UHGV virus genome: UHGV-2156197 | Origin: a virus | Strand: one strand, 5' to 3' | Length of the DNA: 40,124 nucleotides | Shown: piece by piece, positions 1-38,223 of the stretch | Position numbering within the stretch: position 1 is the first letter of the stretch | How the letters are laid out: every line of letters starts with the position of its first letter | The notes under the pieces: model-generated | The model's database searches: none | Seen by the model: the letters and a program-made list of their open reading frames with translations, nothing else | What the model was told of the DNA's origin: nothing | Position numbers and translations under genes: made by a program

Positions 1-141
1 GGCCTGCTTCATTGTCCAGTTCCAGTTAACCTTGCTCAGTTCCTGGACAAACCGTTGCGTGGTGACGGTCTTCCGGCCATTTGGTTCCTGCTGTATCGAA
101 GCATACCAGGCTATTTCAATATCGCTGCGTCGTGGCATCAT
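1..141 (-). CDS. hypothetical protein, 5' part only (gene runs off the window start)
   Basis: ATG-ATG at 141/138 on the minus strand with AGAGGG SD-like motif upstream; 47 codons open to the window edge (MMPRRSDIEIAWYASIQQEPNGRK...); divergent from the dinI-like promoter. Not in the ORF track because truncated. Confidence 0.3.
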   Translation of the reverse strand, partial: MMPRRSDIEIAWYASIQQEPNGRKTVTTQRFVQELSKVNWNWTMKQA

Positions 142-152
142 CACGCCCTCTC

Positions 153-181
153 TTGAATACCGCATAAAAACACAGTATAAA
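153..181 (+). promoter_or_regulatory. sigma70-type promoter of the dinI-like gene
   Basis: -35 TTGAAT (153-158), 17-bp spacer, -10 TATAAA (176-181); AAGAGG SD at 202-207 before ATG 217. Confidence 0.45.
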
Positions 182-201
182 TACTGTATATCCATCCAGT
201 A
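182..201 (+). promoter_or_regulatory. LexA (SOS) box
   Basis: TACTGTATATCCATCCAGTA: CTGT-N8-CCAG 20-mer directly after the -10, same CTGT...CCAG variant as I recall for the E. coli dinI operator. Confidence 0.6.
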
Positions 202-216
202 AAGAGGCAATAAGCA

Positions 217-459
217 ATGTTCGTGGAACTCGTTTATGACAAAAGGAATTTTGATGGTCTGCCCAGTGCAAAAGATATCATTCTGGGCGAATTGACCAGG
301 AGGGTTCACCGGATCTTCCCCGATGCTGATGTCCGGGTTAAACCGATAATGACACTGCCAGCGATCAACACTGACGCCAGCAAGCATGAGAAGGAGCAGA
401 TAAGCCGTACTGTTCAGGAAATGTTTGAAGAGGCTGATATGTGGCTGGTTTCAGATTAA
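217..459 (+). CDS. dinI: DinI-family DNA-damage-inducible protein (prophage moron)
   Basis: 80 aa; alignable to E. coli DinI as recalled (GEL-RR--FPD...ISR-VQE-FEEADMWLVSD); LexA box in promoter. Confidence 0.8.
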   Translation: MFVELVYDKRNFDGLPSAKDIILGELTRRVHRIFPDADVRVKPIMTLPAINTDASKHEKEQISRTVQEMFEEADMWLVSD

Positions 460-587: not shown

Positions 588-1682
588 TCAATTTTTAACG
601 GCAGATGACTGTTCCAGCAAACTGTCTACTTTTTCATTCAATTCTTTTATTGCCTGAAGACAGAGTGCAACGACGCCAGAATATTCCACCGTATAGCTAC
701 GCTTGCTGTCATCTCGTTTTTTAACAAGATGACGGGTGATTGTCGTCTCGCCGCCCGCATTGATTTCTTCAACAGACTCATACTGATCATGATCTTCAAA
801 GACTGATCCGACAGCCTCCGGCAGGACTTTTATAAGCTCCTGGGCAATCACACCGGAAGATGGCAGGCCGCTGTCCTTCCAGTTGAAGGTTACACCGTTT
901 AGAGCCATCACTTTACCAAGTGCGTCTTCAATGGGTTTTATGTCGTTTTTTTTATCGGCATCTGAAGTCTGGTTCAGCGAGACGCAGGTAATATTTCCTT
1001 GTGTATTGAAATTACCGTTCTGACGCATAGCAAAATATTTTTCTGTCCCGGTATTTGTTGCAACGGTAGTTACAAAAACCAGATCACCAAAATTCTCACA
1101 AAATCCGTAGGCCATCTTTTTTAAAGTGGATGGATAAAGAAATGACCACTCACCATAACTTGAGTCCTGAGTTACTACCCCACTAGCTCCAACGCTATAA
1201 ACTGGGGTGGCAATGGTTCCGCCTGTTTTCCCATTCACAGTACCTAGTTGGGGATCTTTGCTGTCTACTTTATCCGCGAGGTTGTCAGAAAGATATTTCC
1301 ATGACGGCCCGGTGAATGTAGTGCCATCCGGTAACTTCACGGTGATGCTGCCAGCACCACTGTAAACCTGCTGCCAGTTCTGTTTGTCGTAATTCAGGCC
1401 TCGCAGCGCTTCAGCACTTTGCGCCACCAGCGCCGCGGTGACCATATTCAGCGCCACACGAGGAACAGCTGACCAGGCCGCGCCAGATTGTGTTGGCCCG
1501 GTAAAGTTACTGACCAGCGTCAACGCTGTACCACTTTCCACAGATTTAACCGGGAGCGTGTAGGGAATGCCACCGACAGTAACAACAATAAAATCTCCGG
1601 CTGCCACCTCGGTGGTAAACGCGGTCCCGCTGCCAGCGACCGCAGCAGAGTTATTCGTCAGGGTTAAGGTTCCTGCTGACAT
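588..1682 (-). CDS. tail fibre protein with C-terminal intramolecular-chaperone (peptidase S74-like) domain
   Basis: 364 aa; Gly/Thr/Ala-rich N-terminus typical of side tail fibres; C-terminal SDADKKNDIKPI...GVTFNWKD motif block matches the auto-cleaving chaperone domain of endosialidase-type fibres. Confidence 0.7.
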   Translation of the reverse strand: MSAGTLTLTNNSAAVAGSGTAFTTEVAAGDFIVVTVGGIPYTLPVKSVESGTALTLVSNFTGPTQSGAAWSAVPRVALNMVTAALVAQSAEALRGLNYDKQNWQQVYSGAGSITVKLPDGTTFTGPSWKYLSDNLADKVDSKDPQLGTVNGKTGGTIATPVYSVGASGVVTQDSSYGEWSFLYPSTLKKMAYGFCENFGDLVFVTTVATNTGTEKYFAMRQNGNFNTQGNITCVSLNQTSDADKKNDIKPIEDALGKVMALNGVTFNWKDSGLPSSGVIAQELIKVLPEAVGSVFEDHDQYESVEEINAGGETTITRHLVKKRDDSKRSYTVEYSGVVALCLQAIKELNEKVDSLLEQSSAVKN

Positions 1683-1744: not shown

Positions 1745-1981
1745 TTAAGAGCAATTCGAACGGGTGAAGTTATTTTTATTCACCCATCGCCAGTTAAATG
1801 GATAACCGGCTCTGTACTCAGTCTGATTTGCAACTTTTCGTACACCGTAAATCTGCACTGACTGGGGCAGCCCACCAACCACTAACTCAGCCTGACAAAC
1901 AGGTTTCTGTTTCTCCAGAACAGGTCCTGAACATGCTGAAAGCACCAGACAGGCAATAACTGGAATAATTATATTTTTCAT
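1745..1981 (-). CDS. small lipoprotein, possible Cor-like superinfection-exclusion protein
   Basis: 78 aa; signal peptide with lipobox LSAC-S; sits between host-range genes and tail fibre; AT-rich upstream region. Cor assignment is inference from size and position only. Confidence 0.6.
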   Translation of the reverse strand: MKNIIIPVIACLVLSACSGPVLEKQKPVCQAELVVGGLPQSVQIYGVRKVANQTEYRAGYPFNWRWVNKNNFTRSNCS

Positions 1982-2764: not shown

Positions 2765-3082
2765 CTACGCAGTCTCCGCAAAAACGATTAACTGCACTTT
2801 GACTGCCGGGTAATCATTAATCCCATCACTACCTGAAGGCTGTATTGTTATGGTGTTTCCAGATGCAATAATGCTTCTTTTGTCTGTATAACTTATTGTC
2901 CCTTTATCCTCCAGAGTACCAACCGCAAAACCAACCTTTAAACCAGGCTCCAGACTGAACTGGTAGCTTCCCGTTTTCTGACCTAAAGCAAGATCGATGA
3001 TACCCACCACGGTTACAGGTTTAATGCCATAGTTATTCGGGACGCCGTTAGTGTCCCATGAGGCAAATCCAAAATCAGACAT
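2765..3082 (-). CDS. hypothetical tail-associated protein
   Basis: 105 aa, ATG start overlapping the J stop by 8 bp (coupled). Confidence 0.5.
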   Translation of the reverse strand: MSDFGFASWDTNGVPNNYGIKPVTVVGIIDLALGQKTGSYQFSLEPGLKVGFAVGTLEDKGTISYTDKRSIIASGNTITIQPSGSDGINDYPAVKVQLIVFAETA

Positions 3083-6000
3083 TGGGAGCCACTCCTGTTA
3101 GTTTACCAATCTGCACAAGCACACGACCTTCCGGCCCCGTAAAGGAAAGATTGTTGTCGGCTTTAGAAAGACACCACCCCCCCTGATTTGCAACTTTGTA
3201 ACCTTCTGACCAGATAGAACCTGAGATTTTCGCATTGTTGATTGCGGCGTTAGCAATTTTGGCGCTTGTTATACTTCCATTCTGAATAAACGCATCGCTG
3301 ATAAACACCTGACCATTAACAACAGCAAAGGGTGAATATTGCGTATCACCGCTGCCACTCATCAGGACGAACTGGTTTGCGTTAAACCCGACACGAGTGA
3401 CCACTGGCTTACCCGCTTCGGCCAGCACCGCGATCGACATCCCGGCGTTATACATCACACCGTTTATTCGAACTCCGGTTTTAAGGGTGTAAATTGCAGA
3501 TGCCCCGGTCGCATCAACCACGGCGGTGAGCTTATCTTCCAGCGCAGCAGTCACATCATTGAACTGCGCCTGCACCTGCGTCGACATTTCAGCCATGGCC
3601 TTATCGACCTGCGCAATGGTCGTTTTAACCACCAGAATATCCGCGCGTACCTCGCCGTACTGCGCCCACTGGTGTTCCACGGTTGCATGGTTGGCCAGCG
3701 CGTTCTGCAATGCGGCTTCAAGATTGGTATCAATGTCGCCGGTCAGGCGGTCACCGTCGGCAGATGTCAGGAAGTCATCAGCAATATCGCCCAGGTAGTC
3801 GTCAGCATTCGCATTAGATTCACCACGAACCCAGTCGGTCCACCCTGATTCATTACCCGTTCTGTCTACCAGCTGCGCGCGGTACCAGAACTCCTGACCA
3901 GCCTTCAAACCCAGTTGGGTGTATTCGGCAGACGGATAAGGCACATCCGACAACAAAAGGGGATTTGAGAAATCACTGTTCGCGGTGTACTGAATTTCCG
4001 TTTTCAGCGTGTCCCCGGTATTAGCCGGGAATCCCCAGTTCAGGCGAATCCCCCAGTTGATCGGCGTTGTCGCAAAGCCGACAGGTTTCGGCGGATTTCC
4101 CACCTTGCCCGTCAGCGTTTTCTCTTCGGAGTAGCCCCAGCCAGAGGAAATTTCAGAGGCATTAATAGCGCGCACACGCACGAGGTAGCGCCCGGCATAA
4201 ATACCCGATACATCAAATGACGTGGTGGAGCTGCGCGGCACGTTAACCCAGTTCCCGTCGTTGCGGCGCCATTGCGCTTCATAGGCGATAGCGTTCTGCG
4301 CCTGGTCCCAGCTCACGCGCATCGTTTCGACGCTAATATTCTGCTGCACCACTGAAAAGGAGCTGATCACGATGTTCGCAGGCGGCGACTGGTTACCCGG
4401 CGGGATCACACTCACCGGCCGCTGGTCAATGATGGCTCCGGTATCAATACGGGCATATTTATCCGGATCGTGCCATGCGCCAGTAATCGAGAAGGTACCA
4501 TCATTGTTATCGGAGACACTGACAACACGATACTGCTGGGCGTAGAGTTCATCTGACTCAACCACCCATACAGCTTCGGCCTGTGGTGTCTCACTGTATG
4601 CCGTGGTGACTGTGACTGATTCCCCGTTAACCGCCTGAATAGTCCTGCTCTGTGACGCACCGGAGGGAAGATTGAGAATAAGGCGATCGCCTGCTGCTGC
4701 ATCAGCTACGCGGTCAAGTTTAATCACGCGACCGTTAACAGCACTGATGCGGCCGCCCATAACTTTGCCGGACAGAAGCTCGTCTGACACGGCGATGATG
4801 TATCCCGGCTGCGGAATGTTTCCGTCCAGGCCAACATCAAACGAAACAACGCGATCCTTGTTGTTGGTGAGAATACCCCAGCGCCCCTTTCGGTTCGCTT
4901 CTGATTGCCTGGTACAGCCGATGGCTGTCATTTCCAGCTGATTAAATCCGTACCGGGCCACCAGAGGCTGCTCAAACACCGGCTCCATCGCATCTGCATA
5001 GGCGTTACCCGGATCAGACCAGGAAACCAGCGCCGTGGTATACCGCGTTTTTGTCGTGCTGCTGGAATAGGTAAAGCGTCCGTCGATAACGTTAGCGCGG
5101 GTGTAAGCGTAATCCACATCTCTCGGCATATCGGCAAGCGCAACAATCTGATCACCGCCCCAGTAGGTCATGCCACGGAAGATAGCAGCAAAATCACGCA
5201 GGACTGTGTAAGCGTCGTTTCGGTCCTGAATGTACACGTTGCAGGTATAACGTGGTTCGGTACCGTTGCCCCCTTTGCCGTCTAGCACCATCTGATCACA
5301 ATACTGGGCAACCTGATAAAGCGTCCATTTATCGATGTTAGCGGCAGTCAAACGGTGACCGAGGCCGAACCGGTCAGAAACAACCAGATCGTAAAAAATC
5401 CACGCAGGGTTATCCGTCCATGCCCACTTAAACGCACCGGTCCATGTACCGCTATAAATACGGGTTTCAGGGTCGTAGGTATCTGGAACGCGGATAACAC
5501 GACCGCGGGGCTCGCAGGAGATCTGCGGGATAGAACCGTTAAACTGGCTGGAATCGAATTCGATGTAGAGTAACGCTGTGTTTGGATAGCGTAACTTGGC
5601 GTCAATCACCTCAGTGAAGCTCTGCAGCGTCATCGTGTCGCCGATCTTCGCGCTGTTGGCGTCAGAGGTTATCTTACGCAGGCGGATTGTCCAGGTGCTT
5701 CCAACCTGCGGTAAATCAATACGGTGGCTGCGCTCGTAACCAGACGTTGTTTTTCCGGTCACGCTGGTATTGAGTACCGTCTGCCATGCGCCGCCGCCCG
5801 TCTGCAGGTCAATCGCATAATTGACCGAGTAACCGACCAGATCACCGTCGTCCTCCTGTTTGAAAAGCGATGGCCATTTCAGACGCAGGCGAACTGCCGA
5901 AAGCTGCGTATTGGTAAACGTTCGCGTCCAGGCTGTGGCGCTTGATACCTCAGTTCCCACGCTGATTTCGTTTTCGGTACCGGGAATACCCTGAATATAC

Positions 6001-6251
6001 TTTTGCGCCTGCGTTCCCGCGCGAAACTCCCACGTCACGCCGCTGAAGTTTTGGGAGCCATCGGCGTTCTCCAGCGCCGTTCCGTCCAGGTAGATATCTT
6101 TGCCGGTTAATTGTCCTGCAAATTCACCTTCGCCAAGCGCAACGAGGATTTTGGCTTTCGCTACAGATTGCAGATCATCAGGCTGTTCGGTAGGGGTTCT
6201 GGAACTGGAGCTGCCGCCCTTGCGGCCCTTTAACACTTTTTCTTTAGCCAT
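3075..6251 (-). CDS. J: host specificity / central tail fibre protein J
   Basis: 1058 aa; long-range similarity to lambda gpJ as recalled (e.g. YPNTAL, NPAW-FYD, YCDQ-V-DG-GG-EPR-TCN blocks). Confidence 0.9.
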   Translation of the reverse strand: MAKEKVLKGRKGGSSSSRTPTEQPDDLQSVAKAKILVALGEGEFAGQLTGKDIYLDGTALENADGSQNFSGVTWEFRAGTQAQKYIQGIPGTENEISVGTEVSSATAWTRTFTNTQLSAVRLRLKWPSLFKQEDDGDLVGYSVNYAIDLQTGGGAWQTVLNTSVTGKTTSGYERSHRIDLPQVGSTWTIRLRKITSDANSAKIGDTMTLQSFTEVIDAKLRYPNTALLYIEFDSSQFNGSIPQISCEPRGRVIRVPDTYDPETRIYSGTWTGAFKWAWTDNPAWIFYDLVVSDRFGLGHRLTAANIDKWTLYQVAQYCDQMVLDGKGGNGTEPRYTCNVYIQDRNDAYTVLRDFAAIFRGMTYWGGDQIVALADMPRDVDYAYTRANVIDGRFTYSSSTTKTRYTTALVSWSDPGNAYADAMEPVFEQPLVARYGFNQLEMTAIGCTRQSEANRKGRWGILTNNKDRVVSFDVGLDGNIPQPGYIIAVSDELLSGKVMGGRISAVNGRVIKLDRVADAAAGDRLILNLPSGASQSRTIQAVNGESVTVTTAYSETPQAEAVWVVESDELYAQQYRVVSVSDNNDGTFSITGAWHDPDKYARIDTGAIIDQRPVSVIPPGNQSPPANIVISSFSVVQQNISVETMRVSWDQAQNAIAYEAQWRRNDGNWVNVPRSSTTSFDVSGIYAGRYLVRVRAINASEISSGWGYSEEKTLTGKVGNPPKPVGFATTPINWGIRLNWGFPANTGDTLKTEIQYTANSDFSNPLLLSDVPYPSAEYTQLGLKAGQEFWYRAQLVDRTGNESGWTDWVRGESNANADDYLGDIADDFLTSADGDRLTGDIDTNLEAALQNALANHATVEHQWAQYGEVRADILVVKTTIAQVDKAMAEMSTQVQAQFNDVTAALEDKLTAVVDATGASAIYTLKTGVRINGVMYNAGMSIAVLAEAGKPVVTRVGFNANQFVLMSGSGDTQYSPFAVVNGQVFISDAFIQNGSITSAKIANAAINNAKISGSIWSEGYKVANQGGWCLSKADNNLSFTGPEGRVLVQIGKLTGVAPNV

Positions 6252-22001: not shown

Positions 22002-23440
22002 GCTGCCTCCTTACCGATACCATCAGTTTTGAAAACGGTATGTACCAGAGGGCCGGTGACCAACCTGTCAGCGAATGACTGCGCAACGATACCGAACGCC
22101 AGCATGTCACCCACCGCTGCGCCAGCCTGTTCTTTCTTCCAGAAACGATAACTCTCGATCCGGTAGTAAAGACGGATGATGCCATGAGCGAACGCCATCA
22201 CATCAGCGCGGGTGCCTCCCAGAAGACCAGCATTAAGCATCACATCGCCGCGGTGCGCTTCAATGAATTCCTGATAGATACGCTCAGGATGATTCTGTTT
22301 CGCCCAGGTGTCGGCGTAGATCTTCGGTTCAGAACCGACGTAAACATTCCCGGGCTGCATTTCTTCCCACGGTGCGCGGAGCATTTCGACATCGGTACCA
22401 TCGGTACACCAGACGAACCGGTATTCAGGGTGATCGCGCAGGTGCTGCCAGATATGCAGCCAGCGCCGGAAGTAGACATTCATCTTCACGTCAGGGACGC
22501 GATACAACTCAACGTCTGCCGATGCCGTCTGCAGCTCATCCACCAGCGCAATACGGCCACAATTCCGAAGCGAGGCAGCCCACCTGGTCAGCATGTCTGA
22601 TACGGCCGCCATTTTCGTACCGCGCTGCGGGTCTGGCTGGCTGGTAAGCAACGTTGTGATTACCACGTCGCGCTGAGATCGATATTCGGCATAGCCTGTA
22701 TATCCTGAATCCCGGCGCTGCCCGTAAATTACAGCGTTCTTTTTATAGAGCGCTTCACGTTCAGGCCTCGGTATGCTGCGCGCGCCCTCTTCGTATTCAT
22801 CCATTGAGTGAATCAGCTTTTCAGAGCCAACCACATCAGCAAACGCCCAGGACGTTAAGCCAGCGTTATAAATCCGAAGCGCCAAATCAGGATGCTCATA
22901 CATGCCTCGACCGTATACCGGATCGAATCCGCCAACCTTCTCAATGGCGCTGCGGTGGTAGTACAGCATCACACCGCGCTGCCCGGTGTAAGCGATATGC
23001 TTATCATCCTGGTGCAGGACGGTCATATCGTTTATCTTTCGTGGACCAGCCAGATCGAGAAACTGGTAAGCCAGGTGTGACTCAGGTGATTCGATGTAAG
23101 GCAGGTGCCAGTTATCGGCAACCGGCCATGCGTCATCATCCCACAGGAAGAGATGCTCACATCCGGCGTCCACCAGCGCTTCGAGGCTTCGGTTTTTCGA
23201 GGCCACAATGCCGAGGGATGTTTCATTGCGAAGCAGCTGCACGCCGTCGGGAACGACTGCGGCAGGTTTTGAACCATCATCTATGACAACCACGAGCGCG
23301 CCGGACGGTAAAAATTGATGATGCTGCGCCAGTGTCCGCTTCAATACGTCAGGGCGATTATGCGTTGTGATTGCTATTCCTATGCGTGACACCGAATTGC
23401 AGACAGGCGCGTATGGAACACCATCGATAGTGACCTGCAT
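21983..23440 (-). CDS. two-domain protein with N-terminal GT2-family glycosyltransferase domain
   Basis: 485 aa; IGIAITTHNRP...VVVIDDGS and DDD (FLWDDDAWP) motifs of GT-A/GT2 enzymes; C-terminal about 250 aa of unknown function; overlaps the next gene by 19 bp. Confidence 0.6.
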   Translation of the reverse strand: MQVTIDGVPYAPVCNSVSRIGIAITTHNRPDVLKRTLAQHHQFLPSGALVVVIDDGSKPAAVVPDGVQLLRNETSLGIVASKNRSLEALVDAGCEHLFLWDDDAWPVADNWHLPYIESPESHLAYQFLDLAGPRKINDMTVLHQDDKHIAYTGQRGVMLYYHRSAIEKVGGFDPVYGRGMYEHPDLALRIYNAGLTSWAFADVVGSEKLIHSMDEYEEGARSIPRPEREALYKKNAVIYGQRRDSGYTGYAEYRSQRDVVITTLLTSQPDPQRGTKMAAVSDMLTRWAASLRNCGRIALVDELQTASADVELYRVPDVKMNVYFRRWLHIWQHLRDHPEYRFVWCTDGTDVEMLRAPWEEMQPGNVYVGSEPKIYADTWAKQNHPERIYQEFIEAHRGDVMLNAGLLGGTRADVMAFAHGIIRLYYRIESYRFWKKEQAGAAVGDMLAFGIVAQSFADRLVTGPLVHTVFKTDGIGKEAAWWKHK

Positions 23441-32558: not shown

Positions 32559-33110
32559 TTATTTCTCCATACTCGAAGAGTTGTTCGCCAAGGCGCCCGG
32601 AGCTGCACACTCGCGGGCGTCACTCTTTTCAGCGACACAAAAAACTCGATAAAGAAGCGTTACGTGCTCCTGGAACTTCGCGATAACCTGATAGCTGTTT
32701 TCCTCAATCTGAGCACGCTCATCTGCGTCAATTACCCCATCAGCCGTGGCTTTACGTACAAAATTAGAATGACGACCTATCCATTCAATGGACTCCATCA
32801 GGCGCTGGTTTATATCGGCGTTATCCAGATCATCAACGTCTGCCAGCGGTACAAATACGCCCTGAGAATGGCGCGCAACGGCATCAGCAATATGAGTTGA
32901 ACCACCAGCACGTTGTAAAACCATTGCCCAGCCCAGCGGGAAGATTTGGTCGCCGTCAACACGAAGGCGGTTGAACAATGCGTTCTCTGTCACGCCCAAC
33001 CATTCCGCCGCCTCGGCATAACCACCAGGAAGATCGGTGATCGTTTTTTTTATCGCCGCCACCAGCCAGGCTGGCTGACGTTCGACTTTCCAAATAGGTT
33101 CGTTACCCAC
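32559..33110 (-). CDS. CII-like regulatory protein
   Basis: 183 aa, HTH-like segment; first gene after cro-like; GTG start with GGGGGGAG SD; family assignment uncertain. Confidence 0.45.
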   Translation of the reverse strand: MGNEPIWKVERQPAWLVAAIKKTITDLPGGYAEAAEWLGVTENALFNRLRVDGDQIFPLGWAMVLQRAGGSTHIADAVARHSQGVFVPLADVDDLDNADINQRLMESIEWIGRHSNFVRKATADGVIDADERAQIEENSYQVIAKFQEHVTLLYRVFCVAEKSDARECAAPGALANNSSSMEK

Positions 33111-33120
33111 AGCTCCCCCC

Positions 33121-33348
33121 TTATTCCTGTGGTTTGAGTTTTACTGAAGCATCGCTACGCTTTTCGTAAAGGTCGGGATGAAAAACCAATTTCCCCCCGG
33201 TTCGATATGCTGCTTCAGCTGCACGCCCTTTTGGGATAAGGCGACCAGTTCTATTACGCCACTGGTAAACAGCCTCGCTTGTGATTCCAAAAAATTCGGC
33301 AACCTTCTCAGTACTGCCGAAGTAGTTTTCAATATCATCGGTTGTCAT
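33121..33348 (-). CDS. Cro-like HTH repressor (YdaS-like)
   Basis: 75 aa; HTH FGSTEKVAEFFGITSEAVYQW; divergent from cI-like gene; AAGGAGG SD. Confidence 0.7.
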   Translation of the reverse strand: MTTDDIENYFGSTEKVAEFFGITSEAVYQWRNRTGRLIPKGRAAEAAYRTGGKLVFHPDLYEKRSDASVKLKPQE

Positions 33349-33356
33349 AACGCCTC

Positions 33357-33424
33357 CTTAGCTAAGTTTGATTAGATATTAATAACCAATCTAACTTTGG
33401 TCAATAAAAACTAAGATTGCTTAG
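33357..33424. promoter_or_regulatory. right operator region with three CTAAG-type operator sites
   Basis: CTAAG-TTTG-ATTAG (33362-33375), CTAAC-TTTG-GTCAA (33391-33404), perfect CTAAG-ATTG-CTTAG (33411-33424); plus palindrome CTTAGCTAAG 33357-33366. Confidence 0.5.
33376..33404 (-). promoter_or_regulatory. pR-like promoter for the cro-like operon
   Basis: Minus-strand -35 TTGACC (33404-33399), 17-bp spacer, -10 TAATAT (33381-33376); overlapped by operator sites. Confidence 0.5.
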
Positions 33425-33444
33425 CCTTTTAATTTATTTATGGT
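33416..33444 (+). promoter_or_regulatory. pRM-like promoter giving a leaderless cI-like mRNA
   Basis: -10 TATGGT (33439-33444) ends 6 nt before ATG 33451 and no SD is present; weak -35 ATTGCT inside the perfect operator. Confidence 0.4.
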
Positions 33445-33450
33445 GTTCAA

Positions 33451-34077
33451 ATGGAAACTGTCGGTCAGCGCATCAAAGCTCTCAGGCGCATAACCAAAAC
33501 CTCGCAGAAAGAACTGGGTAAGTTCTGCGGTGTTAGTGATGTGGCGGTTGGGTATTGGGAAAAAGACGTTAATGTGCCTGGAGGCGAGTCACTTGCGAAA
33601 CTTGCAAAGTATTTCAACACATCAATTGATTACATACTTTATGGCACTGAATTTGAAGGCAATCTGATAACCAAGATGCGAAGGATTCCGGTGATATCCT
33701 GGGTTCAGGCTGGACAGTTTACAGAATGTAAAGCAGCAGAAGTTTTCAGCGAAGTAGATAAGTGGATAGAGACATCACTCCGCATAGGGGATAGCTCCTT
33801 TGCATTGGAGGTTAAAGGTGATTCGATGACAAACCCTAATGGCCTCCCGACAATCCCTGAAGGGGCAACAGTCATAGTAGATCCAGATGCAGAGCCACTT
33901 CATGGAAAGATAGTCGTAGCCAGGCTTGATGGGACAAACGAGGCTACTGTAAAAAAACTTGTCATCGATGGGCCTCAAAAGTTCTTAGTTCCCTTAAATC
34001 CACGCTATCCAAACATTTCAATTAACGGTAATTGCCTGATCATCGGCGTTGTCAAAGGCGTTCAGTACGAGCTTTAA
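33451..34077 (+). CDS. CI-like repressor (XRE HTH plus S24 LexA-like autopeptidase domain)
   Basis: 208 aa; N-terminal HTH; C-terminal GDSM...KK catalytic Ser/Lys dyad of S24 peptidases. Confidence 0.85.
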   Translation: METVGQRIKALRRITKTSQKELGKFCGVSDVAVGYWEKDVNVPGGESLAKLAKYFNTSIDYILYGTEFEGNLITKMRRIPVISWVQAGQFTECKAAEVFSEVDKWIETSLRIGDSSFALEVKGDSMTNPNGLPTIPEGATVIVDPDAEPLHGKIVVARLDGTNEATVKKLVIDGPQKFLVPLNPRYPNISINGNCLIIGVVKGVQYEL

Positions 34078-34165: not shown

Positions 34166-35349
34166 CATCAACAGCGAACAGGCAGGACGCCCACGAAGTA
34201 GCCGCCGGTGGCATATGAATAACCGGATGATTCGCTGACAGGTGTCTTCGGGAGGGGTAACAGAGGCGCGGCCTGATTAACCGCAACTCGTAGTCAAATT
34301 CCTATAGCTGGTGGCGATACCCAAGCCAGGAATACCAAAACCAGCAGGAGTGTTAAGGGCAAGGGCTAATCACCCCCTTAGCACCCCGCCCGAAGATACC
34401 TACCACCGCGCCTGATGTGGTTAAAAGCAGGCCAAAGCAATAACAAGTAACTCCCTGTTCTGGCGGCCCGGTGTTTTCCCGTTTGTCCGGTAACCGCCAG
34501 CCTTTTTCAGGGAAGATCAGCCGGTCATGGTAAGCATCTCGCAGGATGCTTACCGGGACTGGAAGAGTTACCACTTGGAGACGGTCCTTATAAATGTCCT
34601 GGAGAGTGGCGCTGACGACGGAGCGATAACCGAAGGTTGTATGCCCAACTGGAGGCATTGACTACCTAGAAAGATGGGGAGCATGAAAGGCTAAAGGGGC
34701 GGCTCTTTCATGGTGATCCCGCCCAGTTGGTGAAAAGTCGTGATGCGTCTTCATTCCAACCATGCTGGCTGTAAGGTCAGCACACAACGATGAGAGCATT
34801 GACGAGCAAGGCATAACGGCAGGTTCAATCCCTGCCACCGCTATACAGATAGCGGTGATGGGCAACGAAAAGGTCCGTTCAATTCGGATACCGGCAGTGC
34901 TCTCTTCGTTGTGGTGAATGGCGGGGCTGACCGTCAAACGGTTGAGAAAAGATAAGCAGGCGAAACGTTCTAAGCGAGCATACGGACTGATCGAACGCGG
35001 ATGGAACGGGCGGTTACGATATTGAAACACCGCGCCACTGAGCTGGAGTTCAGCACCAGCAACCACAACCAAATCACGCTGAGGACTGTGATAACCGTAG
35101 TTCCATGTGTGTAGTCTTGGCGGTACCTGGGCCTTCAACCTTATGCAAGGGGGACGAAGATAATGTTCTACCTCGGTACCGCCCTTTTTACGCAACAGAA
35201 AAGAGCATCACCGGGCGACGGGCTCATAACCCAATCCACCCGGGCAAAAAGAAAGCGGTCCCTGCAAGCCGCCGACCAATGCAGGTGCTCTTCTCTGTTG
35301 TGTATGGAGAAAGTTCGGCGGTTGCAGCCGCCTTAACGAGGGTAAAACC
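34166..35349 (+). other. ORF-free, hairpin-rich leader of the early-left operon (candidate structured RNA / antitermination region)
   Basis: No plus-strand ORF of 60 aa or more in the track; stops frequent in all frames; perfect 10-bp hairpin 34529-34554, interleaved stems 34682-34724, twin hairpins 34818-34857, terminator-like stem plus T-run 35120-35189. Confidence 0.3.
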
Positions 35350-37436: not shown

Positions 37437-37687
37437 CCGTATTTGAATATCTCCAGGCTCATCCGAATACCACCAGCGGTGAAATCGCCAAAGGTATGAA
37501 CAAAAAGACACCCGCGGTCGCTGGCGCATTATCGCAACTCTATGGCACCGGCCGGATCGTGAAGTCTGGTGTTCGCAAGGGCATTCCAACATACCGTGTT
37601 AACGATATGCCGTTTGGGTGTAGTAACAGCCTAACCATGATGTTTAACCAGCTGTTGAATAGAGCAAGACAGGGAACTGCACAATGA
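37433..37687 (+). CDS. hypothetical winged-helix-like DNA-binding protein
   Basis: 84 aa; HTH-like TSGEIAKGMNKKTPAVAGALSQL; ATGA coupling on both sides. Confidence 0.5.
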   Translation: MTVFEYLQAHPNTTSGEIAKGMNKKTPAVAGALSQLYGTGRIVKSGVRKGIPTYRVNDMPFGCSNSLTMMFNQLLNRARQGTAQ

Positions 37688-38223
37688 GCAAATCACTTGA
37701 AGTGCTGATTGCCAAAATCAAAAAGCAGATTGAAAGCTATGACTCCGTAATTTTGAAGGAAAGTGAAGCCATGGCACTTATCGCAGAACTGGAGGCAAAA
37801 TCCGCGCCAGAATCGTTCAGTGTCATCGGCAAAAACATTTTATCGCAGGATAACCGTATTACATCCGACCCGATGTTTTGCGTTTACCAAAAGCGCGAAA
37901 TCGTTGTTGATGCTCATTACGACTATGACCGCATCGTTTGGATTGATGAAGATGGTAACGAAGCTAATGAGCGCCAACGAATGCGCCTTGAATTGCTCCA
38001 TGAAAACTTCCGTGAACCACCTGAAAAATGGCGCAGAGTTGCCCTGAAAGAAATTGATGATTTCGTTACCTGCTGTTTCACCGAACAGGGATGCAAAGAC
38101 TACCTAGCATGTAATGGCCACAACCTACGACTGCCATTCATCTACGTCAAAAGCGGATTTAGGAATGCTGAGTTTATCAGCGTTCGTAACTGGCTCGCTG
38201 GCATTGGCGTGAAGGGAGAGTGA
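37684..38223 (+). CDS. hypothetical protein
   Basis: 179 aa, ATG start overlapping the previous stop. Confidence 0.6.
   Translation: MSKSLEVLIAKIKKQIESYDSVILKESEAMALIAELEAKSAPESFSVIGKNILSQDNRITSDPMFCVYQKREIVVDAHYDYDRIVWIDEDGNEANERQRMRLELLHENFREPPEKWRRVALKEIDDFVTCCFTEQGCKDYLACNGHNLRLPFIYVKSGFRNAEFISVRNWLAGIGVKGE

Follow-up and report, generated by a model that had tools for sequence, protein, structure and literature searches.

The window analysed here is the complete 40,124-nucleotide stretch of UHGV virus genome UHGV-2156197, for which an earlier reading of the sequence (the original prediction) had proposed a LexA-controlled gene of the DinI family at positions 153-459, at the tail-fibre end of a prophage. 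The coordinates of all the elements described in that range are correct. An open reading frame (ORF) with an ATG start and a TAA stop occupies 217-459 of the plus strand and encodes the 80-residue protein MFVELVYDKRNFDGLPSAKDIILGELTRRVHRIFPDADVRVKPIMTLPAINTDASKHEKEQISRTVQEMFEEADMWLVSD, preceded by the Shine-Dalgarno sequence AAGAGG (202-207, plus strand) 9 nt 5' of the ATG, which is kept in relatives as aaagagg or aaaggag. The assignment to the DinI family is borne out by the Pfam profile DinI (PF06183; 71.7 bits against a cut-off of 24.2, residues 17-77 aligned with profile positions 3-63 of 63), by phrog_189 ('RecA filament binding protein DinI') and by a phmmer match of residues 15-80 to the E. 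coli DinI structures 1GHH/7YWA (E = 2e-7). The protein is a single DinI domain of family-typical length with nothing beyond it, and the net charge over its last 25 residues is -4, compared with -5 in E. coli DinI. An identical protein is present in databases as 'DinI family protein [Citrobacter freundii]', and its 90%-identity cluster holds 811 members.

The gene is preceded by a control region of 75 bp (142-216) that reads in both directions and contains two operators. By direct reading, the rightward promoter consists of a -35 element TTGAAT (153-158, plus strand), a 17-nt spacer and a -10 element TATAAA (176-181, plus strand). Its -35 aligns with the TTGACA of gene 22 of phage phiKO2 (AY374448) and is kept in most type-A relatives, and the same -10 hexamer stands at the same place in phiKO2, so that the promoter of its own foreseen for this gene is predicted at 153-181 with position-for-position homology to the phiKO2 gene 22 promoter. 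On the minus strand, a consensus promoter scan found a leftward promoter at 174-203, with -35 TTTACT (203-198), an 18-nt spacer and -10 TATACT (179-174). The proximal LexA operator O1, TACTGTATATCCATCCAGTA (182-201, without strand), has its core CTGT-N8-CCAG at 184-199 and directly abuts the rightward TATAAA, where a 20-bp LexA box had been expected; it lies over the predicted rightward start and in the spacer and -35 of the predicted leftward promoter. A distal operator O2, TACCGCATAAAAACACAGTA (158-177, without strand), overlaps the rightward -35 and spacer together with the leftward -10 and start. Neither O2 nor the leftward promoter had been part of the original prediction.

O1 is the sole match in the 40 kb to the 20-bp LexA consensus at three or fewer mismatches, and none of 100 shuffles yielded one. 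We then scored the window with a position weight matrix, as the original prediction had suggested. The heterology index of O1 is 2.66 and the 30 E. coli operators from which the matrix was built span 0.85-10.6, most of them scoring worse; as the matrix was rebuilt from literature operators, the absolute values are approximate and differ from published ones. None of 1000 first-order Markov sequences of 40 kb reached 2.66 (best null 6.43), and the same holds for 20000 shuffles of the intergenic region, an AT-rich stretch of 75 bp. O2 has an index of 9.97; the two operators, 4 bp apart, are the only positions of the window at or below 10, and beyond O1 and the degenerate O2 the matrix scan of the 40-kb window returned no LexA box. 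A search for the bare core CTGT-N8-MCAG gave four matches where two are expected, which is not significant alone; the significance of O1 therefore derives from the full 20-mer. Other core matches, at 22127 and 38073, were dismissed as LexA sites with matrix scores above 13. The latter is a perfect 16-bp palindrome, CTGTTTCACCGAACAG (38073-38088), with CTGT-N8-ACAG spacing, inside an ORF at 37684-38223; it is not credible as a LexA site and is absent among the best-scoring sites listed (indices up to 15.1). An Rfam scan of positions 1-1200 at E values up to 1 gave nothing, and an exact 72-nt match of the control region was absent from species-representative genomes.

To follow the operators through related loci, we used close relatives (IMG/VR contigs, E. 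coli genomes, phiKO2, phi80 and Gifsy-2), 91 of which have enough upstream sequence, and a one-genome-per-species scan that yielded 80 loci at 65-95% protein identity, 79 of them scorable, from species of Citrobacter, Kluyvera, Enterobacter, Klebsiella, Raoultella, Scandinavium, Kosakonia, Salmonella, Erwinia and Tatumella, among others. All but one of the close relatives (90 of 91) show a box that scores below 5 no farther than 40 nt from the start codon. All 79 species-diverse loci have a box below 10, with 74 below 8 and 63 below 6, whereas only 5 of 1836 control windows of 120 nt from the same loci contain a box below 10. The box lies 12-55 nt from the start codon in every one of the 79, clustering at 12-17 or 32-40 nt, and while its centre drifts among relatives, CTGT and CAG stay fixed. 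At the position of O2, relatives read TACTGGATAAAAA(A/C)ACAGTA (index 3.1-3.5) or a sequence beginning TACCGGAT (7.6). The proximal box, O1 in the window, is kept in relatives at 13-17 nt from the start codon. One class of relatives pairs a strong proximal box with a weak distal one, a second class has a near-perfect distal box (0.4) and a weak proximal one (about 10), and a few have both boxes strong. The strength of the distal box in relatives suggests a two-operator design whose distal operator has decayed in this copy.

Experiments on homologues agree with this picture. The dinI homologues of Gifsy-1, -2 and -3, with boxes 19 nt from the ATG, are raised 23-, 14- and 4.6-fold by nalidixic acid (PMC8072944), and once the Gifsy-2 box region had been exchanged for an arabinose-inducible promoter, mitomycin C no longer induced the functions encoded downstream (PMC3121763). 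The phiKO2 gene is likewise stated to be LexA-regulated (PMC7556043). The proposed LexA control is thus supported by the conservation of the box in relatives and by the measurements on homologues (PMC8072944, PMC3121763), and LexA probably binds at this site. Altogether, the observation is confirmed: the window carries a real, LexA-regulated dinI-like gene, a textbook-like instance of its kind.

The leftward promoter faces a gene that we call orf80, whose first 47 codons occupy 1-141 of the minus strand before it runs off the window. It encodes a conserved winged-helix-like protein of 80 residues (phrog_3893) and has a Shine-Dalgarno sequence GAGAGGG at 152-146. The layout to the left of the window was read from contigs that encode the identical DinI-like protein: orf80 is followed, after a gap of 2 nt and with its own GGAGG, by a gene of 129 codons for a HumD-family protein, which matches NCBIfam NF051876 ('HumD family translesion DNA polymerase') over its full length with 223.5 bits against a cut-off of 120. 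Among eight places where the identical DinI-like protein occurs, orf80 and humD adjoin in five, orf80 alone is present in two (short contigs) and neither was called in one; a divergent humD homologue is found in about one third of the species-diverse relatives. The orf80 family itself comprises proteins of 79-80 residues in many Enterobacteriaceae, down to about 50% identity, often labelled 'DNA polymerase V' by NCBI.

The N-terminus of the HumD protein, MGFPSPA, aligns with G25-A30 of UmuD, so that it starts at the equivalent of Gly25 and corresponds to a UmuD'-like form that is pre-processed. Phage P1 carries humD too; here, orf80 stands before the gene, and its product ends in the N-terminal arm of UmuD that HumD lacks. 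In BLASTP alignments, the invariant C-terminus of the orf80 product (...E-x-RTFQLFNPNGGL) together with the HumD start (M)GFPSPASDYVE aligns with UmuD 11-EIVTFPLFSDLVQC/GFPSPAADYVE-35. As this alignment spans the junction, the boundary between orf80 and humD falls exactly at the Cys24/Gly25 self-cleavage site of UmuD. A Klebsiella locus with the same split (stop, 1 nt, GTG start, GFPSPA) has a consensus LexA box of its own and no dinI neighbour. On sequence grounds, the orf80-humD pair thus looks like a protein of the LexA/UmuD type, with DNA-binding domain, arm and S24 domain, that is divided between two genes. We found no published description of this split, which is the most novel element of the neighbourhood, with 47 codons of it inside the window.

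Two annotation matters touch these genes. Database entries for a 148-residue 'S24 family peptidase' (P0137, P0143, P0144) begin with MDIQYLYCVFIRYSREG(I/V)N ahead of MGFPSPA; these 19 additional residues stem from translation of the LexA operator and promoter, so that the entries are over-extended humD start calls. For one E. coli genome, the NCBI annotation contains a partial 'DinI family protein' pseudogene on the plus strand, in the place that corresponds to window 43-120 (L002 4043-4120). We rejected a tandem dinI remnant at this place: the translation, beginning LDKPLCGDSLPAIRF, is little like DinI and the opposite strand is the conserved orf80, which makes the call a probable annotation artefact.

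Next, we compared the DinI-like protein with the RecA contacts of E. coli DinI. In the cryo-electron microscopy structure of the DinI-RecA complex, the contacts are L13, L21, W71, W77, F78, E24, E69 and D76, the acidic residues E24, E69 and D76 opposing a basic patch in the groove of the RecA filament, and the same features of the groove are used by LexA, UmuD and lambda CI (PMC9926225). The equivalents in the DinI-like protein are, in this order, L15, I22, F70, W76, L77, E25, E68 and M75. The two proteins are of the same family and length, share an acidic C-terminal helix and are 41% identical; seven of the eight contact positions are identical or conservatively replaced, and the phage clade differs from E. 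coli DinI by L21I, W71F, F78L/M and D76M. The E. coli dinI gene is likewise under LexA control, and the right half-site of its box is also CCAG. Across 78 distinct relatives of the DinI-like protein, down to 65% identity, L15, I22, F70, W76, E25 and E68 do not vary, while position 77 is occupied by Leu or Met and position 75 by a hydrophobic residue in every case. This invariance suggests that the RecA interface is under selection, with a clade-specific change at one acidic contact, and RecA-filament binding is, judging from these residues, most likely the activity of the protein.

Taken together, the locus is very probably a bidirectional control region repressed by host LexA, with the dinI-like gene transcribed rightward and orf80-humD leftward. 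In an undamaged lysogen, LexA would hold both units off; upon DNA damage, RecA filaments would trigger self-cleavage of LexA and both would be expressed. O1, placed over the rightward start and in the leftward spacer and -35, would act on both promoters, and the weak O2 would do the mirror-image job. The rightward unit would deliver the dinI-like gene alone, and the leftward unit orf80 followed by a UmuD'-like HumD that needs no processing. The DinI-like protein may then stabilise RecA filaments and occupy the site on which the self-cleavage of UmuD, LexA and CI-type repressors depends. The net role is most likely that of an SOS-tuning cargo acting with HumD on the RecA-dependent reactions of the lysogen; any damping or delay in the cleavage of the CI-type repressor that the prophage itself encodes, a hypothetical effect, would come second. 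RecA binding by this particular protein, and any effect on induction, are inferred.

Several observations weigh against this interpretation. The DinI-like protein scores 40.1 bits with the NCBIfam model of the chromosomal DinI equivalog (NF007893), below its cut-off of 111 bits, which marks it as a phage-type DinI paralogue and not an orthologue of the host dinI. Throughout the phage clade, Met or a different hydrophobic residue stands in place of the acidic contact D76, and RecA affinity, or the effect on RecA, could differ owing to this replacement. The consensus promoter scan made no call of the rightward promoter, whose -10 lacks the conserved final T; the scan omits it because its rule demands T as the last -10 base, and we accepted the promoter because of the direct reading and the homology to the phiKO2 gene 22 promoter. 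Finally, the 128-bp gap behind the dinI-like gene contains no clear intrinsic terminator. A 14-bp hairpin in this gap (546-582, without strand), ahead of the convergent tail-fibre gene, is a possible noncanonical bidirectional terminator: on the plus strand a U run begins 10 nt past the stem, on the minus strand there is none, and the fold z-score is -1.85.

The original prediction had also linked the gene to SOS-dependent induction of the prophage, and the immunity region (32559-34077) makes RecA dependence of induction probable. It encodes a CI-type repressor of 208 residues (33451-34077, plus strand; HTH_3 and Peptidase_S24 domains) with an Ala-Gly cleavage site (VQ-AG-QF) and the motifs GDSM and VKKL, flanked by a divergent Cro-like gene (33121-33348, minus strand) and a CII-like gene (32559-33110, minus strand). 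Just past cI lie two minus-strand ORFs to which no function was assigned (34353-34658 and 34662-35195). The motifs of a self-cleaving repressor, together with the lack of any other LexA box in the window, point to induction by the lambda route, through RecA-stimulated self-cleavage of the repressor, which in turn makes competition for the groove by the DinI-like protein mechanistically possible. Conceivably, the gene serves chiefly to feed back on the induction of its own prophage, early occupancy of the RecA groove delaying or dampening cleavage of the CI-type repressor, or filament stabilisation promoting it, and so setting the threshold or timing of induction. The repressor with its helix-turn-helix and S24 domains and its Ala-Gly, Ser and Lys motifs, the absence from the window of a LexA-controlled antirepressor, the groove features shared by CI and DinI (PMC9926225) and the great frequency of DinI-like genes among temperate phages all speak for this. 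However, the single genetic test published for homologues, with non-polar deletions of dinI in Gifsy-1 and Gifsy-3, revealed no significant change in the levels or rates of induction (PMC3121763), a result that is only partly transferable because Gifsy phages use antirepressors and not repressor cleavage. In addition, many relatives reside in defective remnants or in surroundings that are not lambdoid, such as e14/P2-like tail modules with pinE, which favours a role independent of the resident repressor, and the direction of any effect on induction is not predictable from the sequence. We consider feedback as the main function possible but doubtful.

A further reading starts from orf80-humD and sees in the cassette a phage-owned rewiring of SOS mutagenesis, and not an induction timer. 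The orf80 product would provide a winged helix and the N-terminal arm of UmuD, including a TFxLF motif, and HumD the already 'cleaved' S24 domain; the DinI-like protein would block the RecA-dependent processing of host UmuD and might also slow the cleavage of CI, and the phage itself would provide a form that needs no processing. We rate this as improbable. If true, the prophage and not the host would set the timing of translesion synthesis in a damaged lysogen. The apparent split of a UmuD-type protein in orf80-humD could bear on the influence of prophages on mutagenesis under DNA-damaging antibiotics.

It is highly improbable that the gene and its box are an inert passenger, left over from module mosaicism and without present function. 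The module is indeed mosaic and mobile between very different prophages, the distal box is degenerate in this copy and truncated copies exist elsewhere, for example at the right end of Gifsy-2; however, the gene has an intact ORF of a length normal for the family, the RecA-contact positions stay unchanged in the 78 relatives even at 65% identity, the proximal operator is close to consensus and the exact protein belongs to the 811-member cluster. Least credible of all is a switch of the Gifsy or 186 type, in which the LexA box would drive an antirepressor co-transcribed with or fused to the dinI homologue and the locus would be the trigger of induction: the precedents are the LexA-controlled Gifsy operon of a dinI homologue, an antirepressor (gfoA/gftA) and irsA, and the 186 antirepressor Tum with its DinI-like half (PMC3121763), and the small LexA-controlled orf80 with no assigned function across the operator might suit it, but the 128 bp between the dinI-like stop and the tail-fibre gene hold no credible ORF (460-587), the S24 motifs predict a repressor of the self-cleaving type, and orf80 is linked to humD, not to immunity regions, with a C-terminus homologous to the N-terminal arm of UmuD. 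The only candidate for a downstream antirepressor, an ORF of 36 codons at 498-608, overlaps the tail-fibre gene, has no Pfam or PHROG match and was rejected.

The SOS-tuning cassette that we favour has close counterparts. In phiKO2, the DinI-like product of gene 22 is 71% identical to that of the window, and its control region, TTGACA-16-TATAAA-LexA box-Shine-Dalgarno, is of the same design. A LexA site is annotated there between gene 22 and the divergent UmuD-like gene 23, a UmuD'-type partner as here, and gene 22, too, neighbours the tail-fibre (J-like) gene and converges with it; the record marks a 'putative bidirectional terminator' in the position that corresponds to our hairpin. phiKO2 differs in being a linear plasmid prophage and in having its UmuD-like gene immediately at the control region, without the orf80 that precedes humD here, and the matrix finds a single box there in place of O1 and a degenerate O2. 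In the phiKO2 record (L003 1465-1512), the annotated -35, -10 and LexA site lie 18-19 nt upstream of TTGACA, TATAAA and TACTGTATATGCATACAGTA, a constant offset that is in the record or its conversion. The dinL gene of phi80 (65% identity) is situated between the tail-fibre gene and attP, opposite the tail genes and with a predicted LexA site; next to it phi80 has a fragment of yecE (DUF72), and the present prophage is at the yecD/yecE locus. Its box lies 38 nt from the ATG, in the distal position only, and no humD partner is annotated.

The dinI homologues of the three Gifsy phages share LexA-box control with the window gene (box 19 nt from the ATG, index 3.9-5.3). Their operon lies near the replication genes and is needed for induction, whereas the gene described here is monocistronic, at the tail end and paired with a CI-type repressor. 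At the right end of Gifsy-2 (L005 238-504, NC_010393 about 45.3-45.6 kb), we noted an unannotated, C-terminally truncated DinI-like ORF beginning MFVELVYDKRNVEGL, with a strong LexA box TACTGTATATACAAACAGTT 15 nt upstream and an adjoining ORF of 228 codons. This locus is distinct from the dinI-gftA operon of the literature and, the ORF being truncated and without annotation, is unusable as an antirepressor comparison. Serratia phage vB_SspS_OS31 has a DinI-like gene, p60, downstream of its tail genes and reading against them, and a LexA site close to consensus precedes p60 by 14 bp (PMC7556043). Unlike the window gene, p60 is followed by a gene of unknown function, p59, to which it is coupled in translation. 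The arrangement is thus already known: GenBank records annotate it (phiKO2, phi80), papers discuss it (PMC7556043, PMC3121763) and Salmonella homologues have been measured (PMC8072944), and as a discovery an ordinary, previously described feature of this kind amounts to little. The pairing with a self-cleaving CI-type repressor would make this prophage a cleaner system than Gifsy in which to look for an effect of a phage DinI-like protein on induction.

Judged from the identical protein and from the flanks in relatives, the window derives from a lambdoid Citrobacter freundii prophage at the yecE position, next to yecD. As had been foreseen, the dinI-like gene lies at the tail-fibre end on the strand opposite to the tail genes: the structural operon is entirely on the minus strand, and the gene is convergent with that of a tail fibre with a Peptidase_S74 chaperone domain (588-1682, minus strand). 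The J-like tip protein is encoded at 3075-6251 (minus strand). The original prediction had further called the gene a moron. Its own predicted promoter and its independence, in orientation and operator, from the late operon uphold this term; it does not stand alone, being one half of a bidirectional SOS cassette. The GC content, 0.45-0.47 across positions 1-720, is like that of the flanks and gives no contrast in base composition as a sign of foreign cargo. The same module is found beside unrelated tail modules and in prophage remnants, a mosaic element that moves between very different prophages. In the prophage, the SOS cassette is located between the tail fibre and the attachment site, a position that it shares with genes 22/23 of phiKO2 and, in much the same way, with dinL of phi80.

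Two neighbouring features complete the description of this end of the prophage. The gene for a Cor lipoprotein of 78 residues with signal peptide and lipobox (…LSAC; 1745-1981, minus strand) has the tail-fibre gene on one side and two membrane-associated 'moron' ORFs (2090-2764 and 2765-3082) on the other, much as cor is placed in phi80; the lipoprotein matches the superinfection-exclusion family phrog_1119 with E = 3.7e-24. Between humD and yecD, convergent with humD, the contigs with the identical DinI-like protein carry a SRAP/YedK-like gene of 222 codons (locus L006 6622-7290; NF007413, 466 bits), so that the DinI-like, HumD and SRAP proteins are three DNA-damage-related cargo products at this end; to its left follow the chromosomal genes yecD-aspS-nudB-yebC-ruvCAB, 83% identical to E. 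coli. IS421 interrupts the SRAP gene of one E. coli relative.

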